IMG/VR virus record: IMGVR_UViG_3300021256_004112
Reading direction: 5' to 3' (one strand)
DNA: 64,000 nt
DNA from: an uncultured virus (IMG/VR IMGVR_UViG_3300021256_004112)
Lineage: Duplodnaviria; Heunggongvirae; Uroviricota; Caudoviricetes
Part shown: positions 10,727-46,256 of the stretch, in pieces
How the letters are laid out: every line of letters begins with the position of its first letter
Numbering within the stretch: the stretch's first letter is position 1
Program-made: the position numbers and the translations under genes
The notes under the pieces: generated by a model
What the model was told of the DNA's origin: nothing
Database searches by the model: none
What the model saw: the letters and a program-made list of their open reading frames with translations, nothing else

Positions 10727-10729
10727 ATA

Positions 10730-10804: not shown

Positions 10805-10807
10805 GCT

Positions 10808-10882: not shown

Positions 10883-10896
10883 AAAAAATCAAAATA

Positions 10897-10972
10897 TGGT
10901 GACCCATCCGCGACTCGAACGCGGGACCCCCTGATTAAAAGTCAGATACTCTGCCAACTGAGCTAATGGGCC
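10897..10972 (-). tRNA. tRNA-Lys(TTT)
   Basis: Loop CT-TTT-AA, CCA. Confidence 0.95.
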
Positions 10973-10976
10973 AAAA

Positions 10977-11065
10977 TGGTGCCCAGAACAGGATTTGAAC
11001 CTGCACGAGAAACTAATCTCACTTGCACCTCAAACAAGTGCGTCTGCCGATTCCGCCACCTGGGC
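10977..11065 (-). tRNA. tRNA-Leu(GAG)
   Basis: Loop TT-GAG-GT, long variable arm, CCA. Confidence 0.95.
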
Positions 11066-11067
11066 AT

Positions 11068-11090
11068 TGGTGCGGTTGATAAGCAACCGC
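11068..11090 (-). other. Acceptor-stem microhelix with ACCA end
   Basis: GCGGTTG-CTTAT-CAACCGC-A-CCA in a tRNA-gene position of the array. Confidence 0.6.
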
Positions 11091-11094
11091 ATAT

Positions 11095-11186
11095 TGGCGG
11101 AGCAAGAAGGATTTGAACCTTCGCAGGGCTGTTCACCCCCTATCGGTTTTCGAAACCGGCCCCTTCAACCGCTTGGGTATTGCTCC
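11095..11186 (-). tRNA. tRNA-Ser(CGA)
   Basis: Loop TT-CGA-AA, long variable arm, CCA. Confidence 0.95.
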
Positions 11187-17688: not shown

Positions 17689-17716
17689 AAAAATGTCCCC
17701 TTTTCTTTATCAACTG

Positions 17717-21764: not shown

Positions 21765-21804
21765 AGGATACCTCTTTCCTTACATACCATTTACACGTTA
21801 TGTC

Positions 21805-27138: not shown

Positions 27139-30100
27139 TTAATGTCTCGCATTGTACGCCTGTCCTGCCGCCTGCATATTGGCGTCGTTATCTGCTACTA
27201 CGATATTGTACCCTTTGAGTACTTCCGGTCTGCCTGCTTTACGGGCAATCTGCCGCAGTTCAGGAGCATACTGCTGTACGTGTTCTTTCTTCACATTCCC
27301 GCCTTTAGACAGAGCGTTAAATAACATCTCTGCGTATTCATAACGGGTCATGGGTTTATCACCCTTGAATGTACCATCAGGATATCCCTGCACCATGTTA
27401 TTGCCGTGCAGAGTATCTACGGCGTTCTTTGCCCAATGTCCATTGGGAACATCGGGGAAGGATGCTTTACGGTCGGTAATCAGACTTAAGGAAGACAGCT
27501 TATTAGCCATATCCTGCATTGCCCGTTCCATGTTAGCAATCTTAGCATTCTGTGCTTTTACCTGCTGTTGTAACGCAGATTTGGAAGCACCAGTACCTTT
27601 CGACAACGCATAGCTGATACCGAAGTTCAGCATATTATCGGAATTGCCAACCGTACCACCGACATTCATCATCACACGGTCGCTCGGGCGATAGAACAAA
27701 CCAATAGCGGCTGCCGTCTCACCCTTATAGTTACCCATAGAAGCGGCGATATTCCATTTCTGTGACGGGTCATATTCAATCGGATGCAGACCTGCTAAAG
27801 CGGCAGCCTGTGCGCCAACCGTATCCACACGGTCATCCAACCGTTTAATTTCATTATTCATATCTTTCCCGCCGGCAATGATTTTATCAGCGACTAATGT
27901 ACCGCCAACATTGGCATTACCGTCTACTTTCAGGTCTTTGTGCATGGTTACATTGCCGTCGAATGAGCTGTTACCGCCAACGCTGAAATCTTTGTCTACC
28001 CGACTGCTTCCATGTACATTGGAGTTCCCGTCCACAGTTAAATCACGATGGATAGTGGTATTCCCCGCAATATTGGTATCCCCTGCTACCGACAGGTTCT
28101 TATTCATGGTTACATCGCCGGCGAAGTTAGAATCCCCGTTTACCGTCAGGTTCTGTTCAACGGTATGGTTTCCTTTAACGGTGGAATCTCCCTCAACCGT
28201 CAGATTCTTCTGCATTGTGACATCACCAGCAAAGTTACTGTCACCATTGACTGTCAGGTTCTGCTGAATTGTAGTGTTACCGCCAATGTTGGTATCGCCA
28301 TCTACATCCAAGTTACCTTTCACATCTGCATTTCCGCCGACTTCAAGGTCTTTCTCAATATACCCGTAGATACCCTTGATACGACCGTCTTCATGCATAG
28401 CGGCTTTGGCTTCGTCCCAATTATGTCCACCAGCATACACGCCATGGGCGTCTATATGGGTGCTGTTCAGACCAACACGGATACCCGTTTCGTTGATTTC
28501 TACCTGATGTTCTTCACCCTCATGCCAAATAGACTTATCGAAGTAGGAAGTGCCATTATCGGCATGTAAGTCACCACCGATGTTCACATCACCTTTTAAA
28601 TCACTGTTTCCAGTTACTGTCAGGTCTGCAGGCTTATCATCTGTACCGATGGTGGTATTGCCATCTAACTGGGTCACCCCTGCTACATGCAGGTCTTTAC
28701 CAATATCAGCATTGGAATTCATGAACACATCACCTTTGAGGGTAGATGTTCCTTCTACGGTTAAATCTTTACCAATGTTAGCATTCCCCTGTAAATCACT
28801 GTCGCCCGTTACTGTAGCATTGCCGTTTACCAGCAAATCAGCGGGCGCATCTTCCGTACCAATTGTGGTATTGCCTTTCAGGTTGGACACGCCTTCTACA
28901 GTTAAATCCTTACCGATATTGGCGTTACCTTCCATAGAAGTATCGCCTTTTACGGTAGCATTACCGTTCACAAGCAAGTCTGCCGGAGAGTCTTCTGTAC
29001 CAATTGTGGTGTTACCATCCAACTGAGACTGTCCTTTTACATGTAAATCCTTACCGATATCGGCGTTCCCCTGTAAGTCGGAATCACCTTTTACGGTCAT
29101 ATTGCTTTCAGCAGTTACATCGCCTTTCAAAGTGGAAGTGCCTTCTACAGTCAGGTCTTTCCCAATGGAAGCATTACCCGCTACCGCTAAATCCTTATCC
29201 ATTGCCACATTGTCATGGAACGTAGCCTCTTTGTTGACTTCCAATACACCATCAACCAGTGTATCTTTCAATTCGGTCTTACCCGCTACGGAGAAGTTAC
29301 CCGCTACGGATGCATCAGACCCCATGGTTACTTTACCGTCTAATTTACTTTCCCCTGTTACATGCAGGTCTTTTCCGATATCGGCGTTGCCGTCTACGGT
29401 TAAATCTTTACCAACATGAGCATTCCCCTGTAAGTCAGAATCACCTTTGACGGTCAGATTTTTGCCGATTTCGGCGTTATTATCCATTGTTACATCGCCC
29501 TTGAGATGGGACTTACCTTCTACGGTCAGGTCTTTCTTAATGGTCTGATTCCCATTGATGATGGAATCCCCCAGTACTTCCTGAGAGCCTACTGTGGATT
29601 TCCCGTCAACGGTTTGGTTGCCATAGATATGGGAATTACCCTCGACAGACTGATTTCCTAATACTGTCCAGTTTCCGTTTACCTTACCATTACCTTCTAC
29701 TTCCAAAGAACCGACTGTTGCTTTACCATCTACGTCCAAATTCTTCTTCATAGTAACATCATCATTGAATGTAGATTTTCCGTCAACGGTCAAATCACCT
29801 TCCAGTTTGGTATCCCCTTCTACAGTCAGGTCACCGCCGAACGAACCATCGCCATCCACACGCAAACTTTTCTCCATAGTAACATCATCTTTAAAGGTTG
29901 ATTTTCCATTAACAGTTAAATCGCCGTCTACCGTAGCGTTTTCGGTCACATGTAATGTCTTGGTAGTGGTCGTACCTTTTACTTCAATGTCTTTCTCGAA
30001 AGTAGCATTGTCATGGAAGGTAGCTTCCTTATTTACTTCCAATGTATCCGTATGCAGTTCCTTAATGGTTGCTTTATCGGATTCCAGCTCTTTGATAGTT

Positions 30101-31626
30101 GCCTTATCCGTTATCAATTCTTTTGTCTTAACTTCTTTTACTTCAATCGTATTATTCGGATTATGCAACGCATCATAAACAGTCTTGCCGGTAACCAGTT
30201 TAGTATCATCAGCAGTTACTGTACCCGTACCAATAGCGTCTGCCCACTGTTGCGCATAAGCAGCAACATTGGAAGCATCTTTTTCTGCTTTCGCTTCATC
30301 TAAACTGTCTACGGAATCTGCTGTGTTCTTCGCCTGTGTATCCAACGCTTTTAGGTTCAGGTTAACCGTATTAGAAGTACGCAAGAAGTTACTGCCGTTT
30401 ATAACATCATTTTCACCGACTTTATCGTCCAGTGCTTTCAGATTCTGTGCTACATTATTGGACGCTTTGATATAATGCCCGTCTGCTACCGTACCAATAC
30501 GGTTGGATAACGCAGTATCAGCAGCTTCACGGGCAGTCTTTTCATTATTCACTGCTGTAGTACGATTCGTCACTTCTGCGGCAATTGCATCCGCATTCTT
30601 TTTTGCCTGTGTATCTAATGCCGTTAAATTTTTAGAAACGTCATTTGTCGCAGACTTTTTAATATAACTACCATCCGCACTTACAGTACCGATACGATTA
30701 GACAATGCTGTGTCTGCATTTTCACGAGCAGTCTTTTCGTTATTGACAGCCGTAGTACGATTCGTCACTTCCGCTGCAATCGCATTAGCATTAGCCTTTG
30801 CCTGTGTATCTAACGCTGTCAGATTGGCCGCTGTGGTATTTCCTGTCTTGACATAATTGCCGTTACCGGACGGACGTACTTCGGAGTAAAGCTTACCACC
30901 GTCAATTAAGCCGGTGTTGCCCGATGCAACAGAGCCATTACCAGTAACGGAGATGCCGTTGGCATTGACGGTAACGTTAGTACCTGCTTTGGCGGAGAAA
31001 GTTGTACCGCTTAACGCCAAGCCATTGCCAGCAGTATATTTGGTATCAGTATCCTGTGTGGTAATTGTACCTTTTGTACCGTCGGCTTTAGTGTAAGTAA
31101 TGGTTTTCCCACTGGCAGATAAGCCTGTGATGGCGTCAGAAGAAGAACCACCTATTCCAGCTTTAGCAGTATTTAATTTTGTAGCCGAACCAAATGCTTG
31201 AATAGCTTCAGCCTCTGTTTTTTCTACCCAACCATTTGTAGCGCCATCCTCGGTTCCGGTATCAACCCAACCTACTTGAAAATAACGATAAGTATTATTA
31301 TCCAAATTTTTTGCTATGAGAAATTGTTTAGCGTTTGATTGAACTGTAAAACTTTCGAACAACCAATTTCCGCCTAAAAAAGTCCTATTAATGTCAGAAT
31401 AATATCCCGCCAACTGATGAAGATATTCAAGTCTTCCCTCTGCTTTAACAGAATTTACAATCCATGGATTTAATAATGTCCCAAACATAGCTAACGTAGT
31501 GAACGCTATACGAGATGTTTTTACAACACCTGACTTCGGTGCTTTGCTATGTGACCGTGCAAATTCACACACCGCCACATACATGTTTTTGGTCTTTGAC
31601 CATACCAGTTTGTAAATTTTGTTCAT
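27139..31626 (-). CDS. Trimeric autotransporter adhesin (ESPR, beta-solenoid repeats, YadA anchor, SLH)
   Basis: MNKIYKLVWSK ESPR; many GKDLTVxG repeats; GAQAAALAGL...GNYKGE anchor; FPDVPNGHWA...GYPDGTF SLH. Confidence 0.92.
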   Translation of the reverse strand: MNKIYKLVWSKTKNMYVAVCEFARSHSKAPKSGVVKTSRIAFTTLAMFGTLLNPWIVNSVKAEGRLEYLHQLAGYYSDINRTFLGGNWLFESFTVQSNAKQFLIAKNLDNNTYRYFQVGWVDTGTEDGATNGWVEKTEAEAIQAFGSATKLNTAKAGIGGSSSDAITGLSASGKTITYTKADGTKGTITTQDTDTKYTAGNGLALSGTTFSAKAGTNVTVNANGISVTGNGSVASGNTGLIDGGKLYSEVRPSGNGNYVKTGNTTAANLTALDTQAKANANAIAAEVTNRTTAVNNEKTARENADTALSNRIGTVSADGSYIKKSATNDVSKNLTALDTQAKKNADAIAAEVTNRTTAVNNEKTAREAADTALSNRIGTVADGHYIKASNNVAQNLKALDDKVGENDVINGSNFLRTSNTVNLNLKALDTQAKNTADSVDSLDEAKAEKDASNVAAYAQQWADAIGTGTVTADDTKLVTGKTVYDALHNPNNTIEVKEVKTKELITDKATIKELESDKATIKELHTDTLEVNKEATFHDNATFEKDIEVKGTTTTKTLHVTENATVDGDLTVNGKSTFKDDVTMEKSLRVDGDGSFGGDLTVEGDTKLEGDLTVDGKSTFNDDVTMKKNLDVDGKATVGSLEVEGNGKVNGNWTVLGNQSVEGNSHIYGNQTVDGKSTVGSQEVLGDSIINGNQTIKKDLTVEGKSHLKGDVTMDNNAEIGKNLTVKGDSDLQGNAHVGKDLTVDGNADIGKDLHVTGESKLDGKVTMGSDASVAGNFSVAGKTELKDTLVDGVLEVNKEATFHDNVAMDKDLAVAGNASIGKDLTVEGTSTLKGDVTAESNMTVKGDSDLQGNADIGKDLHVKGQSQLDGNTTIGTEDSPADLLVNGNATVKGDTSMEGNANIGKDLTVEGVSNLKGNTTIGTEDAPADLLVNGNATVTGDSDLQGNANIGKDLTVEGTSTLKGDVFMNSNADIGKDLHVAGVTQLDGNTTIGTDDKPADLTVTGNSDLKGDVNIGGDLHADNGTSYFDKSIWHEGEEHQVEINETGIRVGLNSTHIDAHGVYAGGHNWDEAKAAMHEDGRIKGIYGYIEKDLEVGGNADVKGNLDVDGDTNIGGNTTIQQNLTVNGDSNFAGDVTMQKNLTVEGDSTVKGNHTVEQNLTVNGDSNFAGDVTMNKNLSVAGDTNIAGNTTIHRDLTVDGNSNVHGSSRVDKDFSVGGNSSFDGNVTMHKDLKVDGNANVGGTLVADKIIAGGKDMNNEIKRLDDRVDTVGAQAAALAGLHPIEYDPSQKWNIAASMGNYKGETAAAIGLFYRPSDRVMMNVGGTVGNSDNMLNFGISYALSKGTGASKSALQQQVKAQNAKIANMERAMQDMANKLSSLSLITDRKASFPDVPNGHWAKNAVDTLHGNNMVQGYPDGTFKGDKPMTRYEYAEMLFNALSKGGNVKKEHVQQYAPELRQIARKAGRPEVLKGYNIVVADNDANMQAAGQAYNARH
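30849..31125. repeat. Left arm of ~270-bp imperfect inverted repeat (partner 32125-32400)
   Basis: Both arms encode ..TITYTK.GTITTQDTDT.Y.AGNGL.L.GTTFSAKAGTNVTVNANGISVTGNG.VASGNTGLIDGGKLY.EVRP..NGNYV on opposite strands. Confidence 0.85.
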
Positions 31627-31850
31627 AGTTAAAGTCCCCCTGTGTAAATAAATTATAAAATCAAAAAGCAAATATATAGTTTTAATCTTTACCATTAAAG
31701 ATATATATTTGTTTTTTAATGTAGTTTTATTATTTTAAGTTCTGAAAGGGGAAAAGAGACATGAACAGAGTATTTAAAGTAGTTTGGAACAAAGCAAGGA
31801 ACTGCTATATGGTAGTTTCCGAGCTGGCAAAAAGAAGAACAAAAGCACCG
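31545..31850. repeat. Divergent ESPR/promoter module, directly repeated at ~38740-39045
   Basis: Near-identical intergenic spacer and both flanking ESPR starts in the two copies. Confidence 0.9.
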
Positions 31851-32408
31851 AAAAGTAATGTATTTAGTAAAATATTGGTTGCGGGTGTGTTAGCATGTGT
31901 ATTATGTCCTACTTCTTTGGTTCTTGCCAGAAATTATTCAAGTAATAGTTATAGTTTTGAATTTGTTGATGACAGTAATTCACAAACTGTTGCTGGTGAT
32001 ACGATTACAGGTATTCGAATTATATATGAGACTTCAGAAACTGGCTACCATACTTTTGACAAAGTTTTTTCGATTGGTGCTTCTGGGAGTTCATCATCAA
32101 GTTCAGACCCAAATGCCATTTACAGTTTGTCTGCAAATGGTAGGACGATTACCTATACAAAAGGTAATGGTGCAACGGGGACGATTACTACCCAGGATAC
32201 TGATACGACATATTCTGCTGGTAATGGTCTTTCATTAAACGGTACGACATTTTCTGCGAAAGCAGGTACTAACGTTACCGTCAATGCTAATGGAATTTCC
32301 GTTACTGGGAATGGTACGGTAGCATCAGGTAATACCGGCTTGATTGACGGCGGTAAACTCTACACCGAAGTCCGTCCCGCCGATAACGGCAATTATGTAA
32401 TGAGCTGA
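31761..32408 (+). CDS. Anchor-less adhesin N-terminal cassette (ESPR + variable region + stalk start)
   Basis: MNRVFKVVWNKARNCYMVVSELAK; stops two residues after NGNYV. Confidence 0.8.
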   Translation: MNRVFKVVWNKARNCYMVVSELAKRRTKAPKSNVFSKILVAGVLACVLCPTSLVLARNYSSNSYSFEFVDDSNSQTVAGDTITGIRIIYETSETGYHTFDKVFSIGASGSSSSSSDPNAIYSLSANGRTITYTKGNGATGTITTQDTDTTYSAGNGLSLNGTTFSAKAGTNVTVNANGISVTGNGTVASGNTGLIDGGKLYTEVRPADNGNYVMS

Positions 32409-32977
32409 CACGCTATCCATTCCCCAAAATTCACTCTACCAACATAACAAAAAACCGTGTTTTTCTCCAAAAAACAACAACCAAAAAACAAAATTTTGAC
32501 GAAATTTACAAATTGTCTCGGAAGAAGGGATTTAGAGAAACCGTAATCTATCTCATGTTTCACCGTTTAAGGATTGCTAAATATCATTCCTCGGAAATAA
32601 AATACCAATCCGTCCCATCCCTTCATTCCCCCACCAATAATGTTAGTAATACCACCGAAAATGCTATAAAGAACACAAAAAAACAACCCCACGCCATAAA
32701 TACGGCATGGAGTTTTACGCTTATATTTCCCTTTATCCCTTTCTTTATTGACCCGTCTTTCGCTTTTATGACCAAGCCTGCGGGTAGCGTAGCATCCAAC
32801 CCGCAAGTCTAATGTCCCCCCCGCCAGCATCGCGCCCAGACGGGGTATTTTATTGTGTCGCAATATCATCATCCATCCCCCTTCCCTTGCAAAAGAAAAG
32901 GGGTAGAAGCCCTTTTTTAAAGGAACTTCTACCCAAATGAGGAGATAACCCCATGGACGCTAAATCAGTTAATATCG

Positions 32978-35900
32978 TTAGTTAATATCATATTCCGCTA
33001 ATACATCGGCTCTGCCTGTTTCTTCCGCAATCTGCTGCAGTTCAGGTGCATATTCCTGTACATGTGATTTATCTACATTCCCACCTTTCGATAAGGCATT
33101 GAACAGCATTTCTGCGTATTCGTAGCGGGTCATCTTTTGGTCGCCCTTGAACTCGCCGTCTGGATATCCCTGTACCATATTGTTGCCATGTAAGGTTTCA
33201 ACGGCTTTGTTTGCCCAGTGGTCTTTCGGCACATCGGGGAATTCTGCAGTCTTGCCTTCGATTAAGGACAGGCTGCCTAATTTTTGCGCCATAGCCTGCA
33301 TTGCGGATTTCAAAGAAGCAATTTCTTTATCCTGCGCATTCATCTTTTTCGCCATCGCCACTTTACTCATGCCATAATTCTTACCTTTGTTGAGGGCGAA
33401 GCTCAAAGAAGCATTCAGCATATTATCGGAATTACCGACTGTACCGCCGACACCGAACAGGACGCTATCGGTAGGTTTATAGAATAATCCAACCGCTGCG
33501 GCATTCTCACCTTTGTAATTACCGTAAGAAGCGGCCATACTCCATACCTGGTCGGCATCCATATCCACAGGACGTAAGCCAGCTAACGCTGCCGCCTGTG
33601 CGCCAGTCTTATCAATACGGGTATCTAAGCGTTTGAATTCCTGACTCATATCTTTTCCGTCGGAAGTCAAAATACGGTCGGCGATTACTGTACCGTTCAC
33701 TACGGTATCCCCATCCACTTTTAAATTCTTTGTAACATGGGTGTTCCCATCAATAGTGGTATTCCCGCCCACATGCAGGTTACGGTCAACGGTTACATTG
33801 TTGTGGAAATGGGTATCTCCACCAACTTCCAAATTCTTTGAAACATACTGGCTACCGTCTACATAACTATCGCCAGCCACATGCAGGTTACGGTTCACAT
33901 TCACATTGTTATGGAAATTAGCGTCCCCGCCAACCTCGAAATTATTGGCAACATACTGACTTCCGTCCACATAGCTGTCCCCGCCCACATGAATATCCTT
34001 CCGTACATTCACGTTTTCATTAAAGATGGAAGGTCCTTCAAATACGGACGTACCGCCTACGTGTAAGTTCTGAGAAATATTGGTGTTGCCGTCTACATAG
34101 GTATCGCCACCCACATGCAGGTCTTTCGTAACATTGGTATTCCCGTGTAAATGAGTATCCCCGCCAACATGGATGTCTTTCATGATAGTTACATTTTTGT
34201 TAAAGGTACTGTCCCCTTCAAAGGTAGAATCTCCACCTACATGTAAATCCTGCTGAATGTTAGTATTTCCATCAAGGTAGGTGTTACCGCCAACATGGAA
34301 GTCCTGTTGTACATCGGCGCTTCCGTCAATTTTGGTATCGCCGTTCACGGTCAAATTCTTCTGAATAGTGGTATTCCCCTCGAAAGTGGAATCCCCGCCA
34401 ACGGAGAAGTTATTGTTTACCCGAGCGTCTTTGTTCACAGTGAGATTCTGTTCAACAGTTTGGTTGCCTTTTACATTGGAATCGCCTTCTACGGTCAGGT
34501 TACCATCTACGCCCATATCACCGTTAAACTGTGTACTGCCTTCCACAATCATGTCTTTCTTGACAATTAGGCTACCATTGACGGACAAGTCTTTTTCCAC
34601 AGTAGCATTGCCTTTCATGTTGGTATCGCCGTCAACGGTTAAATCACCGCCAACGCCGGCATTCCCAGTTACCCCAAGGTCACCACCAACATCTGCATTC
34701 CCGCCGACAGACAGGTCTTTTTCAAAGTTGCCATAGATACCTTTTACCCGCCCGTCTTCGTGCATAGCGGCTTTGGCTTCATCCCAATTATGTCCACCAG
34801 CATAGATACCATGTGCATCCATATGAGTACTGTTCAAACCGACGCGGATACCCGTTTCATTGATTTCTACCTGATGTTCTTCGCCTTCATGCCAAATGGA
34901 TTTGTCGAAATAGGAAGTCGTGCCGTTGTCCGCATGTAAATCCCCGCCGATATTCACATCCCCTTTTAAGTCGGTGTTGCCCGTTACAGCTAAATCAGCA
35001 GGTGCTTCTTCTGTACCAATGGTTGTGTTGCCGTCTAACTGGGACGCACCTTTCACATGCAGGTCTTTGCCGATTTCAGAGTTACCCGTTACGGTAGAAT
35101 TTCCGTTTACAGTCAAATTAGCGTTTATGCCTTCCGTACCGATGGTAGTATCCCCACGCAGTTCAGACGTACCGTTTACGGTTTGATTACCCCGTGCCGT
35201 TATATTGTTCGCAGAAATATCACCCATAGATTCAATATCTCCGCCAACCACCATACCTTTGGTAACTGCCATAGTCCCTTCTACCAAAGTTGATTTCAGA
35301 TAAGTCGTACCATTAACCGTCAGGTCTTTATCCATTGTTACATCATCATGGAAATTGGATTTGCCCGTTACATCCAAATCCCCGCCAAAGGAACCATTAC
35401 CAGCTACGGACAGGTCTTTCCCCACAGAAGCGTTGCCGTCTACAGATAAATCCTTACCTACATGAGCGTTCCCCTGCAAGTCAGAATCACCCTTAACGGT
35501 TAAATCCTTACCCACTTCGGCATTGCTCTGCATCTGTACATCGCCAGCCAAAGTAGATTTCCCATCAACAGTTAAATCTTTACCAACATGGGCGTTTCCC
35601 TGCATATCAGTATCACCTGTTACAGTGGAATTGCCGTTCACCAGTAAATCAGCAGGAGCTTCTTCACTACCGATGGTGGTGTTACCGTTCAGATTGGTTG
35701 TACCATTAACGGTCAAGCCGTCGCCTTCTTCGCCGTTTCCTACAGTAAAGGTATCGGTCACTTCACCCGTGCCGTTGACTTTCAGCCAACCGTTATCAGC
35801 ACCTTCTTTACCAATAGCCAGTCCAGCTCCAGTATCATTATTACCGATAGTGGTATTCCCGCCAACCTCCAATGTACCGGAAATGGTTTCGTTCCCTTCT

Positions 35901-38821
35901 ACCGTCAAGTTGGCGTTTTGGTCTTTCGTACCGATACGGGTATCCCCGTCCAACTGAGATTTACCATCTACATGGAAGTCACCTTGTACCTCACTGTTTC
36001 CTTTTACGATTTGGTTGCCATTTATAAGAGAGTCGCCCAATACTTCTTGTGAACCGACGGTAGATTTACCTTTTACAGTTTCATCACCGTTAATTGTCAC
36101 GTTTTTATCAAAAGTAGCATTGTCTTTCACGTTCAATGTACCTTCAACGGTTTCATTACCTTTTACGGTTTGATTACCGCCAATGACGCTGTTCCCCAAA
36201 ATTTCCTGAGAACCAGCGGTTAATTTACCAACCACTTCGGCGTTCCCGTTGGTTTTAGAATCTCCGTTCACAAGGAACGTGCCATTGACTGTGGTATCTT
36301 TCAGCTCAGTTTTGCCATCAACCTTTAACCCGCCTTCGCCGACTTTTACAGTGCCGGCTTCCACTGTGCCAGTGGTTCGAATCGTACCATCCCCAGCGTC
36401 AATCGTACCGCCATTTGTATTGATACCACCACCTTCGGTATCAATCGTGCCACCACCAGTTTCAATGCCACCACCTTCAGTATCAACCTTACCACCTTTA
36501 GTGCCGATATCGCCACCGCCGGTGCTGAGATTCTTATTATCCATGATTAAGTCGCCAAGGATAGTAACGTTACGGTTAAACACGGCGTTGTCCTTAAATT
36601 CAGACTGCCCGGTCACCGTAAGCTTCCCGCCGATATCGGAATTACCTGTTACGGTTTGGTTGCCCGTGATTTTTGTATTTCCATTCAAGTTAGACGGTCC
36701 GTTCACAGTTAAAGTTCCGTCAATCGTCGTATCATCCAGTGTTGTATTTCCATCAACATCAAAATTTCCAGTTACAGACTGGTTTCCTTTTACAGTAACA
36801 TTCTTATCAAAGGTAGCATCGTCAGTCGCTTCTATGGTAGAAACAGTGGTTTTTCCTGTTACGGATAATGTACCGCCAACGGTAGAGTTACCCGTTACCG
36901 TAGAAGAAGCGGATTTTACATTGCCGCTATACTCCGCAGTAGAACCCGTAGTCTTACCAGTTACATTTAATGCACCGCCAATGTTTTCGTTGCCAGTTAC
37001 AGTAGAATTTCCTGTAATCTTTGTATTTCCGTTCAGGTTGGACGGTCCGTTTACGGTCAGAGTACCATCAATGGTCGTATCATCCAATGTGGTGTTACCG
37101 TCTACATCAAAGTTGCCCGCAACGGATTCGTTGCCTTTTACGGTCACATTCTTATTGAAAGTAGCATCACCTGTTGCTTCTATGGTAGAAACAGTGGTTT
37201 TACCTGTTATGGATAATGTGCCACCAACGGTGGAGTTACCAGTTACTGTGGAAGACGCGGATTTAATATTCCCGCTATATTCTGCCGTAGAACCCGTAGT
37301 CTTACCCGTAACATTTAATGTACCGCTTACGGTTTCATTGCCGTTAACGGTCAGATTCTTGGTTGTGGTAGTCCCGTTCAGGGTAGTTGAACCAGTAACA
37401 GTCAAAGCACCGCCAACAGATTCATTCCCCGTTACGGTTTCATTTCCTGTAATCGTTGTATTCCCTTTCAGATTAGATGGACCGTTCACGTTCAGTGTAC
37501 CATCAATATCGGTATCATCCAATGTGGTTTTACCGTCAACATCTAAATCCCGCTGCATATACACATTCTTGGTAAATGTGGTATCGTTGTTGAATTCCAT
37601 TTCACTGGAAGAATGGATTTTACCCGTTACAAACAGGTCGCCAGCAATCGTAGCGTCATCGTTTACCTTTAAGGTGCCGGTAGTCGTCTTACCAGCAACA
37701 GTAGAATTGCCGTTAATACTGGTGTTTCCTTTTACCGTCAGGTCTTTATCGAACGTACCGTTACCGACAGACTCAAATGTACCGCCGACTTTTGTAATAC
37801 CAGTAGTTTCCATAGAACCTGCGGTTACTTTACCAGTAACAGTCTCATTACCGTTCACGGTCAAATTAGCATTCGCACCCGTAGTACCAATCGTAGTATT
37901 TCCACGAAGAGCAGAAGTGCCTTCCACTGTCAGAGAATCCAAGGTAGTCGCCCCTGCGTCAACAACACCTAATGTGGATTTACCCGTAACACCCAATGTA
38001 CCGGATACGGTTTCATTACCGTTCACCGTCAGATTCTTAGTAGTGGTAGTCCCGTTCAAGGTAGTTGCGCCAGTAACGGTCAATGTCCCGCCAATACTTT
38101 CATTCCCACCTACAGAAGCATTACCTGTCGTAGAAACAGTCTTAAATTTTGCGTCTACCGTACTACCTGTCAGCGCATCATATACACCATCGCTGGTAGC
38201 TAAATTAGTATTTCCATTTGCAATATCATGCGTTCCAGTTACATTGATACCGCTTCCATTAACGGTAACGTTAGTACCAGCTTTAGCGGAAAATGTTGTG
38301 CCGCTTAATGCCAATCCATTGCCAGCGGTGTATTTGGTATCGGTATCCTGCGTGGTAATCGTACCAGTTGTACCATCGGCTTTTGTATAGGTGATTGTCT
38401 TTCCGCTGACAGACAGACCTGTAATGGCGCCGATGGAACCACCTACAGTACCCCAGACTTCTGCTGAATAAAATCTCTCGTCATATTCCCGAGTGCCAGC
38501 ATTATATAAAATAGTTAACTCACCCGTTGATTTATTTTTAGCTAACCACAAATGTGCCCAGGTAGAACCCTCATCATCCGTTTCTATTACTGAGGACTGA
38601 TGAGATTGAATGTCATAATATTTCCATAATTCACTTGCACCAATAGCTGCATTAGCAGGTGCTACTGTACCAAAAGACAAAACTGTTGCCAGTACGCCTG
38701 CTACCACGGCACGGCTAATTATGCCGGATTTTGGCGCTTTCGTATGCGATTTGGCAAATTCACACACCGCCACATACATGTTTTTGGTCTTCGACCATAC
38801 CAGTTTGTAAATTTTGTTCAT
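32978..38821 (-). CDS. Trimeric autotransporter adhesin (ESPR, long beta-solenoid, YadA anchor, SLH)
   Basis: Same architecture as 27139-31626, with a shared FDKSIWHEGEEHQVEINETG block. Confidence 0.92.
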   Translation of the reverse strand: MNKIYKLVWSKTKNMYVAVCEFAKSHTKAPKSGIISRAVVAGVLATVLSFGTVAPANAAIGASELWKYYDIQSHQSSVIETDDEGSTWAHLWLAKNKSTGELTILYNAGTREYDERFYSAEVWGTVGGSIGAITGLSVSGKTITYTKADGTTGTITTQDTDTKYTAGNGLALSGTTFSAKAGTNVTVNGSGINVTGTHDIANGNTNLATSDGVYDALTGSTVDAKFKTVSTTGNASVGGNESIGGTLTVTGATTLNGTTTTKNLTVNGNETVSGTLGVTGKSTLGVVDAGATTLDSLTVEGTSALRGNTTIGTTGANANLTVNGNETVTGKVTAGSMETTGITKVGGTFESVGNGTFDKDLTVKGNTSINGNSTVAGKTTTGTLKVNDDATIAGDLFVTGKIHSSSEMEFNNDTTFTKNVYMQRDLDVDGKTTLDDTDIDGTLNVNGPSNLKGNTTITGNETVTGNESVGGALTVTGSTTLNGTTTTKNLTVNGNETVSGTLNVTGKTTGSTAEYSGNIKSASSTVTGNSTVGGTLSITGKTTVSTIEATGDATFNKNVTVKGNESVAGNFDVDGNTTLDDTTIDGTLTVNGPSNLNGNTKITGNSTVTGNENIGGALNVTGKTTGSTAEYSGNVKSASSTVTGNSTVGGTLSVTGKTTVSTIEATDDATFDKNVTVKGNQSVTGNFDVDGNTTLDDTTIDGTLTVNGPSNLNGNTKITGNQTVTGNSDIGGKLTVTGQSEFKDNAVFNRNVTILGDLIMDNKNLSTGGGDIGTKGGKVDTEGGGIETGGGTIDTEGGGINTNGGTIDAGDGTIRTTGTVEAGTVKVGEGGLKVDGKTELKDTTVNGTFLVNGDSKTNGNAEVVGKLTAGSQEILGNSVIGGNQTVKGNETVEGTLNVKDNATFDKNVTINGDETVKGKSTVGSQEVLGDSLINGNQIVKGNSEVQGDFHVDGKSQLDGDTRIGTKDQNANLTVEGNETISGTLEVGGNTTIGNNDTGAGLAIGKEGADNGWLKVNGTGEVTDTFTVGNGEEGDGLTVNGTTNLNGNTTIGSEEAPADLLVNGNSTVTGDTDMQGNAHVGKDLTVDGKSTLAGDVQMQSNAEVGKDLTVKGDSDLQGNAHVGKDLSVDGNASVGKDLSVAGNGSFGGDLDVTGKSNFHDDVTMDKDLTVNGTTYLKSTLVEGTMAVTKGMVVGGDIESMGDISANNITARGNQTVNGTSELRGDTTIGTEGINANLTVNGNSTVTGNSEIGKDLHVKGASQLDGNTTIGTEEAPADLAVTGNTDLKGDVNIGGDLHADNGTTSYFDKSIWHEGEEHQVEINETGIRVGLNSTHMDAHGIYAGGHNWDEAKAAMHEDGRVKGIYGNFEKDLSVGGNADVGGDLGVTGNAGVGGDLTVDGDTNMKGNATVEKDLSVNGSLIVKKDMIVEGSTQFNGDMGVDGNLTVEGDSNVKGNQTVEQNLTVNKDARVNNNFSVGGDSTFEGNTTIQKNLTVNGDTKIDGSADVQQDFHVGGNTYLDGNTNIQQDLHVGGDSTFEGDSTFNKNVTIMKDIHVGGDTHLHGNTNVTKDLHVGGDTYVDGNTNISQNLHVGGTSVFEGPSIFNENVNVRKDIHVGGDSYVDGSQYVANNFEVGGDANFHNNVNVNRNLHVAGDSYVDGSQYVSKNLEVGGDTHFHNNVTVDRNLHVGGNTTIDGNTHVTKNLKVDGDTVVNGTVIADRILTSDGKDMSQEFKRLDTRIDKTGAQAAALAGLRPVDMDADQVWSMAASYGNYKGENAAAVGLFYKPTDSVLFGVGGTVGNSDNMLNASLSFALNKGKNYGMSKVAMAKKMNAQDKEIASLKSAMQAMAQKLGSLSLIEGKTAEFPDVPKDHWANKAVETLHGNNMVQGYPDGEFKGDQKMTRYEYAEMLFNALSKGGNVDKSHVQEYAPELQQIAEETGRADVLAEYDIN

Positions 38822-38953
38822 AGTTATAGTCCCCCTGTGTAAATAAATTAAAAAATCAAAAAGCAAATACATAGTTTTAATCGCTATTAAAGATATATAT
38901 TTGTTTTTTAATGTAAGTGTTATTATTTTAAGTTCTGAAAGGGGAAAAGAGAC

Positions 38954-39589
38954 ATGAACAAGGTATTTAAAGTCATTTGGAGCAAAGCAAGGAACTGCTA
39001 TATGGTAGTTTCCGAGCTGGCGAAACGTAGGACAAAATCGCCGAAGTCCGGCATAATTAACCATGCAGTGTCAACCAGCGTATTAGCGTCATTTTTATCG
39101 TTTGGTGTTATATTGTCTGCTCCGGCAGAGGCGCGTACTACCGTTTCATTAATTGATAGGGGTAGTAGTTATGCATATGCTTTAATAAATAACACCAGAT
39201 ACGAATACGGAACCGCTAATTTCAATAAAATAAAAACTATATTGGACAAAGTACGGGCTTCATCGTCTAATATATCAACAAATAGCTTTTATGGTGAAAG
39301 CGATTCAGGAATTGCAATGGTTCAAGGCATAAATGTATTAGGAAATTTTGCATCATATAAATATGTTGACGGTTGGCAAAGTTCTAACGGAGACCCGAAC
39401 GAGGAACATTTGATTATTTCCAATGATATAACAATTAATGATTTAGACAAAATTATTACTGATTTAAATAGCGGTGGTAGCGGTTCATCCGACTTCACAA
39501 GGTCCGATAACGGCGATTATGTAACTTTAAACCCACAAATTTCATTTTCAAGAAAATATAACAAAAAATACTGTTTTTCACAAAATTGA
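38954..39589 (+). CDS. Second anchor-less adhesin N-terminal cassette
   Basis: MNKVFKVIWSKARNCYMVVSELAK, unrelated variable region, DNGDYV motif, then ~20 AT-rich codons to the stop. Confidence 0.8.
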   Translation: MNKVFKVIWSKARNCYMVVSELAKRRTKSPKSGIINHAVSTSVLASFLSFGVILSAPAEARTTVSLIDRGSSYAYALINNTRYEYGTANFNKIKTILDKVRASSSNISTNSFYGESDSGIAMVQGINVLGNFASYKYVDGWQSSNGDPNEEHLIISNDITINDLDKIITDLNSGGSGSSDFTRSDNGDYVTLNPQISFSRKYNKKYCFSQN

Positions 39590-41955: not shown

Positions 41956-42029
41956 TGGAGCGGATAACGGGACTCGAACCCGTACCATCAGCTTGGAAGG
42001 CTAATATGCTGCCATTACACCATATCCGC
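41956..42029 (-). tRNA. tRNA-Gly(TCC)
   Basis: Loop CT-TCC-AA, CCA. Confidence 0.95.
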
Positions 42030-42044
42030 AAATAGACAAAACAT

Positions 42045-42425
42045 TTAATTCTCTAAATCGTTCAAAGCATCTTGGTTTATAAACACGCCCTGTTCAGCCG
42101 GCAATGTGGGATGCACCTGCCGATACCATTCCCTGCGTTTTGTTTCCAATATCGTTTTACGGATACGCCAGCTTTTATAAAGAAAGACTAATTTAGTGAA
42201 AAGCAACGAAACATAGCAAATTCCAATAACCGCCGAGGCAATATATACCCAATTAAGGGAAGGATTGTACATTCTTGTAAATTGAGACTCATCTACATGA
42301 CTGCCGATAATGACTGTCAAAACAGAAACAATTCCAATAATCACCATAAGACGGTCAAGAAAGAATTGAAAGTTATCAGTCCGTTTTGCCGTATCAGCAA
42401 GTCGCTCCTGCAGTGTTTTACACAT
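42045..42425 (-). CDS. Two-TM hypothetical membrane protein
   Basis: MCKTLQ start after AGGAG; two hydrophobic segments. Confidence 0.65.
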   Translation of the reverse strand: MCKTLQERLADTAKRTDNFQFFLDRLMVIIGIVSVLTVIIGSHVDESQFTRMYNPSLNWVYIASAVIGICYVSLLFTKLVFLYKSWRIRKTILETKRREWYRQVHPTLPAEQGVFINQDALNDLEN

Positions 42426-42447
42426 AAGACAACTCCTTGAAAATATA

Positions 42448-42532
42448 TGGTAGGCGAGGTGGGATTTGAACCCACAAGTCCGAAGACGACGGTTTTTGAG
42501 ACCGTTGCGTATGCCAGTTCCGCCACTCGCCC
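42448..42532 (-). tRNA. tRNA-Leu(CAA)
   Basis: Loop CT-CAA-AA, variable arm, CCA. Confidence 0.95.
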
Positions 42533-42534
42533 AT

Positions 42535-43002
42535 TTAACAAACACAGTCACTATTCCCTGTAAGAATTAAATCATACAGAAACAAATCGTATAAATGTGG
42601 ACAACCCTGTTCATCCGATTTTTTAACCTCAATCGCAATCATGCAAAATATTTCTTTATCTTTATCCTGTTCCCAAATATCGTATTCATCCCTGCCTAAC
42701 CAAAAAGAGTTTGTATAATCACAAACACCCGTTAAATCTTCTATGTAAATGCCGATATAAACAAACCCGTTGGAAACAAGGTGGGCATAATCAGGGAACG
42801 CTTTTACAGAAATTTTACGCTGTTGAGCTTTATCTTCCAATACGAACAATTCAATCATTTTACGGTCGGCAAAAGCATCTTTCACAGCCTGTTTATCTGC
42901 CCGCAGAAAATTCATGATTGTCTGCTGTTCATTTCTTGTAAAATTAATCTTTACCTGCAGCTGTCGTCTGCCGTCAAATGTATCAATCTCTTGGTATTTC
43001 AT
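42535..43002 (-). CDS. Hypothetical protein
   Basis: 155 aa between tRNAs, GAGG RBS. Confidence 0.6.
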   Translation of the reverse strand: MKYQEIDTFDGRRQLQVKINFTRNEQQTIMNFLRADKQAVKDAFADRKMIELFVLEDKAQQRKISVKAFPDYAHLVSNGFVYIGIYIEDLTGVCDYTNSFWLGRDEYDIWEQDKDKEIFCMIAIEVKKSDEQGCPHLYDLFLYDLILTGNSDCVC

Positions 43003-43022
43003 AAAAAACCTCGAAAATAAAA

Positions 43023-43098
43023 TGGCAGGCGGTGAAGGATTTGAACCCTCATCGCACGGTTTTGGAGACCGGCATTTTTCCAGTTAAACTAACCGCCT
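43023..43098 (-). tRNA. tRNA-Trp(CCA)
   Basis: Loop CT-CCA-AA, CCA end. Confidence 0.93.
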
Positions 43099-43129
43099 GA
43101 TTGGTGGAGCGTACTGTTCCATGAATATA

Positions 43130-43216
43130 TGGTGCGGGAAGAGGGATTTGAACCCTCACGGTGTTTCCACCTCGGGATTTTAAGTCCCGTGCGTCTGCCG
43201 ATTCCGCCATTCCCGC
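43130..43216 (-). tRNA. tRNA-Leu(TAA)
   Basis: Loop CT-TAA-AA, variable arm. Confidence 0.95.
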
Positions 43217-43225
43217 AAAATAACA

Positions 43226-43302
43226 TGGTTTCCCGAGCAGGAGTTGAACCTGCAACCTTCGGTTTCGTAGACCGACACTCTATCCTATTGAGCTATCGGG
43301 AA
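43226..43302 (-). tRNA. tRNA-Arg(ACG)
   Basis: Loop CT-ACG-AA. Confidence 0.95.
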
Positions 43303-43305
43303 ATA

Positions 43306-43382
43306 TGGTCCGAATGGCAGGACTCGAACCTGCGACATCCTGCTCCCAAGGCAGGTGCGCTACCAAACTGCGCCACATTCGG
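43306..43382 (-). tRNA. tRNA-Pro(TGG)
   Basis: Loop CT-TGG-GA. Confidence 0.95.
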
Positions 43383-43390
43383 ATAATATA

Positions 43391-43466
43391 TGGTTTCCGA
43401 GGCAGGACTCGAACCTGCGCATAACGGAGTCAAAGTCCGTTGCCTTACCGCCTTGGCGACTCGGAA
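43391..43466 (-). tRNA. tRNA-Gln(TTG)
   Basis: Loop CT-TTG-AC. Confidence 0.95.
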
Positions 43467-43480
43467 ATGTTTAATGATTC

Positions 43481-44044
43481 TCAAAATGGTATCGCATAAT
43501 GTGGACGGTCAGCATTCGCTATATCCCGTTTCCATTTTGCCCATTTTGCTATATATACTCGGGATTTTTGGTAATCCTCTTCATTCAACCATTTGACTTC
43601 TTTATACGGACGAAAGGTAATATAACCATATTCATCAGGAATACCACAAACGACTTCTTCTTTGATTGTCTCACAGCCTATATCAATCGGTTGAATCTGC
43701 CAAAACACATTTTCCAGCTCAAATGACTGAATCTGCACTTTAGCTGTCCTTTCAGAAAAGGTATAAATGTACTCTGATACCGCTTCCTGACAAGGCGATT
43801 TTATTTTGGGATAAAACAAATATTGGCTCTGCCCGATATCCAATACAGGATATTTCCCTTTAGCCAAAGAATCCTGCAAGTATGTATACGCCTCATGCAG
43901 TTTCCCTTCAAACCGTTTCGCAACAGAAGGCAACCATTCCGCATACGCCATCCGTGCGGGAATTGTCCAATTTTTACATTCTTTCGGGCAATTCTCAGGA
44001 AAATAATATCTTCCTCTGACATTTTGAACCAATACCAGCTTCAT
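43481..44044 (-). CDS. Hypothetical protein
   Basis: 187 aa, AGGAG RBS. Confidence 0.65.
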   Translation of the reverse strand: MKLVLVQNVRGRYYFPENCPKECKNWTIPARMAYAEWLPSVAKRFEGKLHEAYTYLQDSLAKGKYPVLDIGQSQYLFYPKIKSPCQEAVSEYIYTFSERTAKVQIQSFELENVFWQIQPIDIGCETIKEEVVCGIPDEYGYITFRPYKEVKWLNEEDYQKSRVYIAKWAKWKRDIANADRPHYAIPF

Positions 44045-44060
44045 CTTTAACTCCTTTTTA

Positions 44061-44134
44061 TGGAGCGGCCGACGGGACTCGAACCCGTGATAACAGCTTG
44101 GGAAGCTGTGGTGTTACCGCTACACTACGACCGC
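44061..44134 (-). tRNA. tRNA-Gly(CCC)
   Basis: Loop TT-CCC-AA. Confidence 0.95.
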
Positions 44135-44383
44135 AAAAGTAGCCGCCCAAGACAAGAAGAAAGCGGCCATGAGGATTTTGTAACGCCAACCCTTTTATGG
44201 AACTAATCCATTAACACGCCTGGCCTTTAACCGGCAACCTGCAACAATAGCTACAGGCCAGAAGCTCTATACTCTCCACAGGTCTTACTACCTCAACACG
44301 TACCAGACATACATCGCTTTGATTTAAGAGTGTGCGTCCCGGTAAATTTTCACTCTTATTCAAACCCTTACGGGAAAGAAACC

Positions 44384-44800
44384 TGGTGGATGTGAGGAGA
44401 ATCGAACTCCTGTCCGAACTGCATCTTCCGACGGATTTTATTGCGATAGATTTTTGAGACTTTCTTGTCCTGCGTTTTTAGAACCGCTACGTTCAGGGGT
44501 ACAAAAGCTTGCACCCTCCACCACCCCATTTTTACAGAACGGGGAAACTGTACCGGGTCATTATTCACAAGACCCGAAGAAATAGTCAAGGTTTATTTGA
44601 CGACCGAGGTTGACCCCAAGACTGGAACTCTTCGGCGTTGCAGTCATCTTACGCAGCCAGTGCTACCGGCGCTACAGAACGACGAGCAAAAATGTTTACA
44701 ACATTTTTAGCGTTTAATTTTAATTGCCTGTTTTAAGGTCATCAGACACAGACCCGCAAAACCGTCAGCTTCAACAACCCGTCGAAACCTTTACACACCC
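44384..44800 (-). ncRNA. ssrA: tmRNA
   Basis: 5' GGGTGTGTAAAGGTTTCGAC; 3' GTTCGATTC...CACATCCACCA with a G3-U pair; tag reading frame AKNVVNIFARRSVAPVALAA*. Confidence 0.95.
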
Positions 44801-44890
44801 AAAATAAGAATGAGGAATATTAGTTAGCAAGCGTACCAACACTCGCCATAAGCCCCAAAACCACGACAAGGTTTTCCTCAACTTCGGGGA

Positions 44891-44965
44891 TGGCTCCACG
44901 GGCAGGACTCGAACCTGCAACCGGACGGTTAACAGCCGTCTGCTCTACCGTTGAGCTACCGTGGA
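44891..44965 (-). tRNA. tRNA-Asn(GTT)
   Basis: Loop CT-GTT-AA. Confidence 0.95.
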
Positions 44966-45104
44966 ATTTTTATATATTACTTAAGAAAAAGAGCGGTCCA
45001 CCTGATGAAATCTTTATGACCGGGATTCATGTTTTCATAGAAGCATCAGATTTCAGTTTTTCACGCCCGCGCTCTTTCTGAAATAATATCTGATTCATAA
45101 AATA

Positions 45105-45180
45105 TGGCGACTCGGATGGGATTTGAACCCACGACCTCCGCCGTGACAGGGCGGCATTCTAACCGCTGAACTACCGAGCC
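45105..45180 (-). tRNA. tRNA-Asp(GTC)
   Basis: Loop CT-GTC-AC. Confidence 0.95.
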
Positions 45181-45183
45181 GTA

Positions 45184-45259
45184 TGGTGACGCATGAGGGA
45201 ATTGAACCCATCATTTGCGGATTGAAAGCCCGCTGTACTAACCTTTATACGAATGCGCC
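45184..45259 (-). tRNA. tRNA-Glu(TTC)
   Basis: Loop CT-TTC-AA. Confidence 0.93.
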
Positions 45260-45262
45260 ATT

Positions 45263-45337
45263 TGGAAGCAGGGGTTGGAATTGCACCAACCTTGACTTGG
45301 GTATGAACCAAGAGAAGCACTTTGCTTCATCCCTGCG
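45263..45337 (-). tRNA. Atypical initiator-like tRNA-Met(CAT)
   Basis: Loop TT-CAT-AC, unpaired C1, T-loop GTGCAAT, aberrant D arm. Confidence 0.75.
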
Positions 45338-45350
45338 ATAAAAACATATT

Positions 45351-45439
45351 TGGTGGGCAGGGTTGGATTCGAACCAACGAAGCGCAATCAACGCAACAGA
45401 TTTACAGTCTGCGCCCTTTAGCCACTTGGATACCTGCCC
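45351..45439 (-). tRNA. tRNA-Tyr(GTA)
   Basis: Loop CT-GTA-AA, variable arm. Confidence 0.95.
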
Positions 45440-45444
45440 ATTTA

Positions 45445-45520
45445 TGGAGCTGGCGACAGGACTTGAACCTGCAACCTGCGCATTACAAGTGCGCCGCGCT
45501 ACCCATTGTGCCACGCCAGC
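45445..45520 (-). tRNA. tRNA-Thr(TGT)
   Basis: Loop CT-TGT-AA. Confidence 0.95.
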
Positions 45521-45526
45521 ATTTGC

Positions 45527-45700
45527 TTATTTATCCCTGCCAACATGAGACCAACTCTGCCCCGAAATCTTAGGACAGTAGGAAGCCATCCGCAGTTTCT
45601 CTTTCAATGCAATTTCCTTTTCTTTCCGAATTTCCTTTTCCGTTTTCTCAACGGATTTTTTATGGATAACTGCATAAGAGTTTCCTTGTTTTTCAATCAT
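45527..45700 (-). CDS. Small basic hypothetical protein
   Basis: 57 aa between tRNAs, AAAGGA upstream. Confidence 0.45.
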   Translation of the reverse strand: MIEKQGNSYAVIHKKSVEKTEKEIRKEKEIALKEKLRMASYCPKISGQSWSHVGRDK

Positions 45701-45730
45701 GGTAATATTCATCCTTTCTTTTATTAAAAA

Positions 45731-45806
45731 TGGAGCTGACGAGAGGAATTGAACCTCCAACCTACTGCTTACGAAGCAGTTGCTCTGCCGATTGAGCTAC
45801 GTCAGC
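45731..45806 (-). tRNA. tRNA-Thr(CGT)
   Basis: Loop TT-CGT-AA. Confidence 0.95.
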
Positions 45807-45946
45807 AGAAAGGGAATTTAGTAATGGCAAATATAAGAAAGTGAGGACGCACCACGACGGAATCATCCGTAAGCGCCAAAAGTAAAAGATTGCCATATAA
45901 GCCCCTGCGCCGCGTCAAGGCATTCCCTATGCAGGGGAATTAAGGA

Positions 45947-46024
45947 TGGTGGGGAGTGATGGAATCGAACCACCGCAAAGCCCTGCTCTTCAGGCAGGCG
46001 CTCTACCGACTGAGCTAACTCCCC
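45947..46024 (-). tRNA. tRNA-Phe(GAA)
   Basis: Loop CT-GAA-GA. Confidence 0.93.
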
Positions 46025-46027
46025 GTA

Positions 46028-46102
46028 TGGTGGTCTCGGCAGGACTTGAACCTGCAACCTGTCGCTTATGAGGCGATTTCTCTGCCATTGAGATACGAGA
46101 CC
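46028..46102 (-). tRNA. tRNA-Met or Ile2 (CAT)
   Basis: Loop CT-CAT-AA, paired acceptor stem. Confidence 0.9.
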
Positions 46103-46167
46103 TAAACTGTCAATTACTGTTTCGGAGTAATATTGGCTGAAGCCATACCCATACCGATTTTTTAGTA

Positions 46168-46256
46168 TGGCGGAGAGTGCAGGATTCGAACCTGCGAGGG
46201 GAACAACCCCTGACGGTTTAGCAAACCGTTGCCATCAGCCACTCGGCCAACTCTCC
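46168..46256 (-). tRNA. tRNA-Ser(GCT)
   Basis: Loop TT-GCT-AA, long variable arm. Confidence 0.95.

Follow-up and report, generated by a model that had tools for sequence, protein, structure and literature searches.

Exchangeable adhesin heads at in-frame dif-like sites: a candidate N-terminal shufflon on a mobile element of a putative Acidaminococcaceae host

The uncultured virus record IMGVR_UViG_3300021256_004112 of IMG/VR contains trimeric autotransporter adhesin genes, one of which appears to have an exchangeable N-terminal head. We analysed a stretch of 64,000 nucleotides from this record, called the window here. Two anchored adhesin genes in it, A1 and A2, each lie back to back with a short open reading frame (ORF), C1 or C2, that encodes an ESPR-containing head and no anchor. 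A preliminary description, made from the letters of the window, had proposed that C1 and C2 are silent cassettes that can be grafted onto the anchored body of A1 by inversion at a shared 21-mer. The genes and the regions between them are as follows.

27139..31626, minus strand: A1, trimeric autotransporter adhesin of 1495 amino acids (aa); ESPR, variable head, stalk, YadA anchor and SLH, from Pfam and the translation
31627..31760, no strand: divergent intergenic region between A1 and C1; two ribosome-binding sites (RBS) and a palindrome with 27-nt arms (31660-31720); putative promoter activity
31761..32408, plus strand: C1, anchor-less spare head of 215 aa; ESPR, its own variable domain and the shared stalk arm; stop three codons past NGNY
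32978..38821, minus strand: A2, second anchored adhesin of 1947 aa; ESPR, YadA anchor and SLH (Pfam); no internal dif-like site
38822..38953, no strand: second copy of the divergent intergenic region, within a 325-nt, 90% direct repeat matching 31529-31852
38954..39589, plus strand: C2, anchor-less ESPR head of 211 aa, without the shared stalk arm

A1 and A2 have the ESPR signal, YadA-type anchor and C-terminal SLH by which the SLH-type trimeric autotransporters of Negativicutes are recognized. ESPR is the only Pfam domain in C1 and C2, and an RBS of the GAAAGGGG type stands in front of both. The 325-nt direct repeat is common to the two adhesin-cassette pairs and spans the divergent intergenic region. 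Similar palindromes lie between the head pairs of two related loci, L078 and L016. The earlier statement that every full adhesin has a divergent anchor-less ESPR ORF holds for A1/C1 and A2/C2 and fails for a third adhesin on the minus strand, of which the ESPR start and YadA head repeats are present (1-2769) before the window edge cuts it; no divergent ESPR cassette lies beside it. At window positions 27361 and 33144, a relative in sequencing run X3 has a single adhesin in which an A2-like body is fused to the A1 3' end, so the two genes seem to have arisen by duplication and to have diverged later.

The three 21-mers are exactly where they had been placed (30849-30869 on the minus strand, 32380-32400 and 39504-39524 on the plus strand), with no other copy in the window at up to three mismatches and matches in 0 of 100 shuffles. 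Both cassettes had been said to lose their likeness to the adhesin at this point. This is correct for C1, which shares with A1 a 277-nt inverted arm of 79% identity ending at the site, and incorrect for C2, which has no stalk and resembles A1 at background level beyond ~40 nt upstream of the site. The peptide NGNYV is in frame in A1, and C1 stops three codons past NGNY; C2 encodes NGDYV in a frame that continues for 21 codons beyond the site. Over the last 90 codons of C1, comparison with A1 gave 40 identical, 36 synonymous and 14 non-synonymous codons. Such mostly synonymous differences would fit a head that is put to use from time to time. In RNA run X2 a contig of depth 2.8 lay over the C1 head (31848-32131) and none over the C2 or A2 head, which hints that C1 is transcribed; contigs of this run show neither level nor strand.

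The aligned cassette sites consist of 11 bases ending in ATAA, a 6-base spacer and then TTATG. A pattern search with this layout matched an intergenic sequence, ACGTCCGATAA-TATATA-TTATGTAAAAT, that adjoins lexA in the genome bin RUG140 (G001) and in Succiniclasticum ruminis. It is found in 107 of 140 Acidaminococcaceae genomes, as a single copy in 89, compared with 5 hits for the reversed control. Its position relative to GC skew was tested in one genome, G006, a single contig starting at dnaA. There it lies at 49% of the length, at the GC-skew switch: skew was positive in 8/8 sampled stretches from 0.2 Mb to the candidate and negative in 9/10 beyond it, as well as in the first 8 kb. These results suggest that this sequence is the dif site of Acidaminococcaceae. 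An Acidaminococcus dif is absent from the supplement of PMC3025954, which like the other papers below is cited from the parts available to us, so the call rests on the tests described here. No good match to a dif pattern was present in four genomes from Veillonella, Megasphaera, Dialister and Mitsuokella. Second near-perfect copies occur at G001:C59 8197-8224 and G123:C60 169-196, on contigs that also carry a tyrosine integrase, and possibly mark dif-targeting elements in this family.

Comparison with this candidate showed that the 21-mers are the cores of 28-bp sites, made of two 11-base arms and the 6-base spacer, and that these sites are the true unit.

30846..30873, minus strand: dif-like site in A1, in frame; CCGTCCGGTAA CGGCAA TTATGTCAAGA; 17 of 22 arm positions identical to the family dif
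32376..32403, plus strand: dif-like site at the end of C1; CCCGCCGATAA CGGCAA TTATGTAATGA; 16 of 22; inner ATAA-N6-TTAT intact
39500..39527, plus strand: dif-like site in C2; AGGTCCGATAA CGGCGA TTATGTAACTT; 19 of 22, the best dif match of the window
30860..32390, no strand: predicted invertible two-head segment of C-module type; A1 head, divergent promoters and C1 head between inverted sites with identical CGGCAA spacers

The three window sites thus resemble the family dif candidate in their 11-6-11 layout and at 16-19 of 22 arm positions; the shuffle control (20 shuffles) gave 1.15 matches at 16, 0.2 at 17 and none at 18 or above. The inner ATAA-spacer-TTAT is present in the C2 site as in that of C1. 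The C2 site is inverted relative to the A1 site and direct relative to the C1 site, and its spacer is one base apart from theirs. In A1 the putative XerC arm points toward the head and the XerD arm toward the body. Head pairs have C arms inward and tails have D arms inward, both in L078 and in A1/C1, and the stretch from C1 to C2 is of CD type, so that C and D modules alternate between inverted sites. No 21-mer or dif-like site lies inside A2; its head is fixed, and A2 was rejected as a switching gene.

The preliminary description had cautioned that NGNYV is also an ordinary stalk repeat. We scored 108 similar stalk motifs in adhesin-like ORFs against dif and found that 100 score 6-14, including the two NGNY repeats of the adhesin at 1-2769 (11 and 11 of 22), and that 8 reach at least 16, 7 of these at cassette loci. 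These low scores of ordinary repeats answer the caveat, and we infer that the stalk repeat is the likely raw material, tuned toward dif only at cassette loci.

Proteins related to the spare heads were compared next. A search for short homologues, limited to 118-377 aa, returned 308 hits, the top 65 of which were inspected. Among these, 55 (C1 included) end at NG[N/D]Y, after which the sequence passes into a tail from a small set of unrelated ones; the tail VIQLELY..., for example, recurs in 11 short homologues. The unrelated tails all begin at the same base and keep TTATG. Near-identical heads are joined to unrelated tails (P0048/P0054, 100%; P0023/P0052, 97%; P0017/P0026, 95%). Some full-length anchored adhesins also carry heads of short proteins, with the junction again at the same motif (P0017 on P0127/P0128, P0015 on P0209, P0014 on P0204). 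A single body carries four different heads (P0204, P0261, P0265, P0268), two different bodies share one head (P0204, P0277), and among cluster members of 10 chosen proteins one head, 100% identical, was found both with a body and with a tail. That heads 99-100% identical occur with several tails and with bodies indicates recent, repeated events. The same variable head domain also stands behind differing signal peptides, some without ESPR, in P0017/P0026, P0004/P0006/P0014 and P0127/P0128, which suggests that exchange also takes place at a second point, close to where the signal peptide ends.

From the proteins fetched, a filtered subset of 98 with site and arm formed 52 head clusters. Twelve clusters contain at least two members; in 10 of them the head is joined to more than one downstream partner, and in 7 it occurs with an anchored body as well as with a short tail. 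The shortness of the contigs that encode cassette proteins was not taken as evidence. The family-wide search for the coding-site pattern found cassette sites in G001 alone, the 12 other loci inspected not being adhesin cassettes, and the single G123 adhesin locus scanned had no site scoring at least 16. PLSDB plasmids gave no match. A 19-mer had 15 hits in viral contigs, none related to the locus by blastn, and 15 viral loci from protein alignment matched in N-terminal parts only. The ESM Atlas held no usable family for either the C1 or the C2 head.

One element was found in both orientations. L078, in G001, and L018 have a common backbone of 90-97% identity, and between them a 1113-nt, 97% identical two-head segment is reversed, with its ends at sites that have the spacer CAAGGT. 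Each head of this segment is anchored in one of the two and unanchored in the other. The crossover lies within ~32 nt: on one side, head-specific bases follow the heads until 25 nt short of the spacer; on the other, the third base of the right arm already belongs to the body or tail. Exact identity at the crossover is 13-18 nt, which is too little for an assembly mis-join. L078 contains two spacer classes. In G001 the locus lies in a conjugative element within chromosomal genes, with a MobA relaxase, VirB/TrbL genes and a large serine recombinase beside tRNA-Leu. L018 and L078 also differ at the end of an ardC-like gene, where L018 has one dif-like site on its own (10545-10572) and L078 an additional two-head module (9140-10643); a whole module seems to have been gained or lost.

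Thus, alternative in-frame versions of one gene by inversion were observed for L018 and L078. In the window they were constructed in silico, where joining at the spacer onto the A1 body left the frame open and gave 1449 aa with the C1 head and 1426 aa with the C2 head. Of the proposals in the preliminary description, the open frame after grafting of either head is confirmed, and the relatives support a switching of N-terminal heads at the site. Related assemblies did not show the plus-strand ORFs as plain full-length adhesins with the cassettes as remnants. The three expected variants fared less well: the spacer of C2 is off at 1/6 bases, and 0 of 716 candidate longer proteins carried the C2 head, which is weak evidence. 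Nor do we retain the term silent as an established state, since both heads share a near-symmetric divergent promoter region within the invertible piece, and orientation sets which head is anchored, with no obvious bearing on which one is transcribed. Probably what the spare heads lack is an anchor and not expression; A1 is the expression locus.

We propose the following mechanism. Stalk repeat codons of the autotransporter would spell a 28-bp mimic of the host chromosomal dif. Heads, each a signal peptide plus a variable tip domain, would lie back to back around divergent promoters and end in a site whose XerC arm points inward, and the XerD arm would form the start of the anchored body and of the short junk tails. 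Recombination between inverted, spacer-matched sites would flip the head pair and place the other head, in frame, on the body. Host XerC/XerD would catalyse this, as at Acinetobacter pdif sites. With both promoters inside the flipped piece, orientation would decide which head is anchored. In Acinetobacter, pdif sites alternate in orientation, with inversions and excisions between identical or 5/6-matching spacers, and inversions with identical or 5-of-6 spacers were demonstrated by PCR (PMC13141974). By this rule A1/C1, with the same spacer in inverted sites, should flip 30860-32390, A1/C2, with one mismatch, may flip 8.7 kb, and the direct pair C1/C2 could excise A2. Because the sites mimic dif, the lack of an invertase in the window, which is correct for the 45 ORFs scanned, is no longer an objection. 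In G001, xerD scores above the cut-off, and a xerC-like gene adjoining codY, a partial ORF, has 320 bits versus a cut-off of 335.

Head exchange in the adhesin family is very likely. Host XerC/XerD are the probable recombining enzymes. As a whole, we take it to be fairly likely that the locus is an N-terminal adhesin shufflon with in-frame pdif-type sites on a large mobile element of an Acidaminococcaceae host. We lean towards A1-C1 flipping being active in this strain; the use of C2 in switching is a tentative suggestion that we would sooner doubt than accept.

Several observations weigh against this reading. The A1 site has GTAA where ATAA is conserved, and in PMC11705084 a site departing from ATAA-spacer-TTAT was inactive and intramolecular recombination between plasmid sites was inefficient; degenerate arms also occur in the exchanged heads of cluster 4. 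Three unrelated window positions reach 16/22, so the score of the C1 site alone is not above chance. Run X1 is probably the source of the window (98% of words, ~25x), and its contigs bridge all three sites in the window orientation with no joint there, contrary to the inverted junctions foreseen earlier. Contigs drop rare forms, so this result rules out only a common inverted form. The evidence for both orientations is one pair, of the CAAGGT class and on an element other than that of the window. Pairs of the CGG-spacer class share up to 29-33 nt of exact identity, enough for some assembly mis-joins. We found no anchored protein with the C1 or C2 head, and the coding form of the site was at a cassette locus in only 1 of 401 sampled Negativicutes genomes. 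The L078 element carries two serine recombinases, a 208-aa resolvase ~6 kb from the adhesin and the large one at its end. Finally, the 45 window ORFs scanned are part of a 181,627-nt contig, of which ~117 kb lies outside the window. A 1288-nt contig of run X3 (5% of words) has the same promoter region between other heads and was not used as support.

Several of these points would also fit an account in which the same sites and Xer enzymes act rarely, or between elements through cointegrate formation and resolution. The outcome would be slow reshuffling and not phase variation, with the window locus partly locked. The single orientation in the source run, the GTAA of A1, the absence of a site in A2, one head on two bodies (P0204, P0277), the lone site of L018 and the preference for cointegrates over intramolecular events in PMC11705084 are all consistent with it. 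It is harder to reconcile with the clean reciprocal inversion between L018 and L078, with the near-identical heads on several tails and bodies and with the inversions detected by PCR in PMC13141974. We consider it unlikely.

Alternatively, a recombinase encoded by the element, either a serine resolvase or a tyrosine integrase outside the window, could switch the heads, the likeness to dif being secondary. Most gene-altering inversions have a recombinase nearby (PMC9881135), the L078 element has its two serine recombinases, and the tRNA-array element of the window has a distant relative that encodes a tyrosine integrase of its own. Yet the contig that holds the L078 adhesin and both element ends, G001:C29, has no tyrosine recombinase (G001 has five elsewhere) and the window ORFs scanned have none of any kind. 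The 11-6-11 layout with ATAA/TTAT, the identity of up to 19/22 to the family dif and the distinct 6-bp spacer classes also argue against it, leaving an element-encoded enzyme improbable.

Homologous recombination in the shared stalk arms, or mis-joins in metagenome assembly, could also make head-tail mosaics. The arms are 140-290 nt long at 73-81% identity, some pairs have exact runs of 29-33 nt, and almost all of the evidence comes from assemblies. Arm residues are associated mostly with the head (0.85-0.97 versus 0.74-0.93), which speaks against this explanation, although the last 8 residues are slightly linked to the tail (0.93 versus a background of 0.87). The short identity at the L018/L078 crossover, the common first base and TTATG of unrelated tails, and the existence of sites without any arm (C2; L018 10545-10572) make this explanation very improbable. 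That C1 and C2 are deletion remnants with a plain stalk repeat is suggested by the kinship of the motif to that repeat and by C2, which has neither stalk nor anchored relative, but it is most improbable and largely refuted at the family level by the low dif scores of ordinary repeats, the mostly synonymous C1 arm and the dozens of heads that end at one position.

The proposed system combines features of several known ones. Like the dif modules of Acinetobacter, it has 28-bp dif-like sites on mobile DNA, alternating C/D orientation, partners governed by spacer identity and no dedicated recombinase. Unlike them, the sites lie in frame inside coding sequence and rejoin protein parts instead of separating whole-gene modules, and the phylum is different. 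PMC13141974 calls the dif module system unique to Acinetobacter. We therefore did not assign the locus to the Rep_3/OrfX dif modules; its carriers are an Acidaminococcaceae conjugative element and a tRNA-array element, with sites within the reading frame. As in the R64/IncI shufflon (pilV, Rci, sfx; PMC11852207), inversion yields alternative adhesin versions on a conjugative element. R64 swaps C-termini at 12-7-12 sfx sites by means of an adjacent dedicated invertase. The parts exchanged here are N-termini that bring their own start signals, the sites are 11-6-11 dif mimics, and no invertase is adjacent. Membership of the Rci/sfx type was rejected on the N-terminal variable part and the lack of recombinases noted above. 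Intragenic inversion at UU172/mba of Ureaplasma also joins a surface-protein N-terminus to alternative partners, and Xer-family enzymes are suspected there (PMC3047005). In that system the constant N-terminal anchor moves to variable C-terminal parts, the reverse of the arrangement here, and the sites are not described as dif mimics in the parts of the paper cited.

The IMEX elements CTX, TLC and GGI likewise exploit host XerC/XerD through degenerate dif sites, but Xer there integrates and excises whole elements and does not vary a protein (PMC5357621). The Veillonella protein Vta, a Negativicutes trimeric autotransporter with C-terminal SLH (bioRxiv 10.64898/2026.01.22.700529), has the ESPR, passenger, YadA anchor and periplasmic SLH of A1 and A2; head exchange is not described in the available text, from which 'shuffl' and 'phase varia' are absent. 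The main text of two surveys of gene-altering inversions (PMC9881135, PMC10028968) mentions neither XerC nor autotransporters, and the locus tables in the supplement of PMC9881135 may list such loci. In literature searches, beyond whose reach most subscription papers lie, no account of adhesin heads being exchanged at dif-like sites turned up.

The window looks like part of a large mobile element. It has 23 tRNA genes and a tmRNA (10635-11186 and 41956-46256), as well as genes for an ERF-family protein, a primase, restriction-modification and Omp85. The family genome G123 has a tRNA/tmRNA array related to it (74% across the tmRNA), integrated beside chromosomal genes (G123:C63) and with a tyrosine integrase; it points to Acidaminococcaceae as the host family. 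The Omp85-family gene (63310-64000, minus strand) might assist insertion of the element's adhesins. Two minus-strand ORFs (16615-17688 and 20679-21764) both align with one C-terminal portion of the Eco57I methylase profile, and their starts lie in a 46-nt direct repeat of 89% identity (17644-17689, 21720-21765); a type IIG restriction-modification gene may have these two as its alternative specificity ends. A C5 cytosine methyltransferase with intein (Hint) domains is split across two overlapping ORFs (57249-61191, minus strand), possibly by a frameshift or an assembly error. An IS605-family TnpB-like gene lies at 12012-13136 (minus strand).

By analogy with PilV, the role of the system could be to vary the target of the adhesin tip, plausibly gut surfaces or the partner cells of conjugation; we see about equal reason for and against this suggestion. 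More broadly, it seems somewhat likely to us that mobile elements of rumen and gut Acidaminococcaceae have written dif into adhesin stalk codons. XerC/XerD would then serve as the invertase of a shufflon, swapping tips inside single elements and passing heads from a shared pool of more than 50 among unrelated elements, and the 6-bp spacer would be a compatibility code. If so, XerC/XerD would, besides their known parts in chromosome-dimer resolution and in the movement of whole genes or elements, edit protein sequence in frame, and pdif-type module biology would extend from Acinetobacter to a diderm Firmicute. Invertible loci with no invertase nearby would be explained, and dif mimics inside genes would provide a search rule for hidden variation systems. 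The family would offer a test bed for which plasmid-type Xer sites recombine intramolecularly and for how spacer and arm changes set the choice of partner, and its heads would be a natural library of small, interchangeable adhesin tips.

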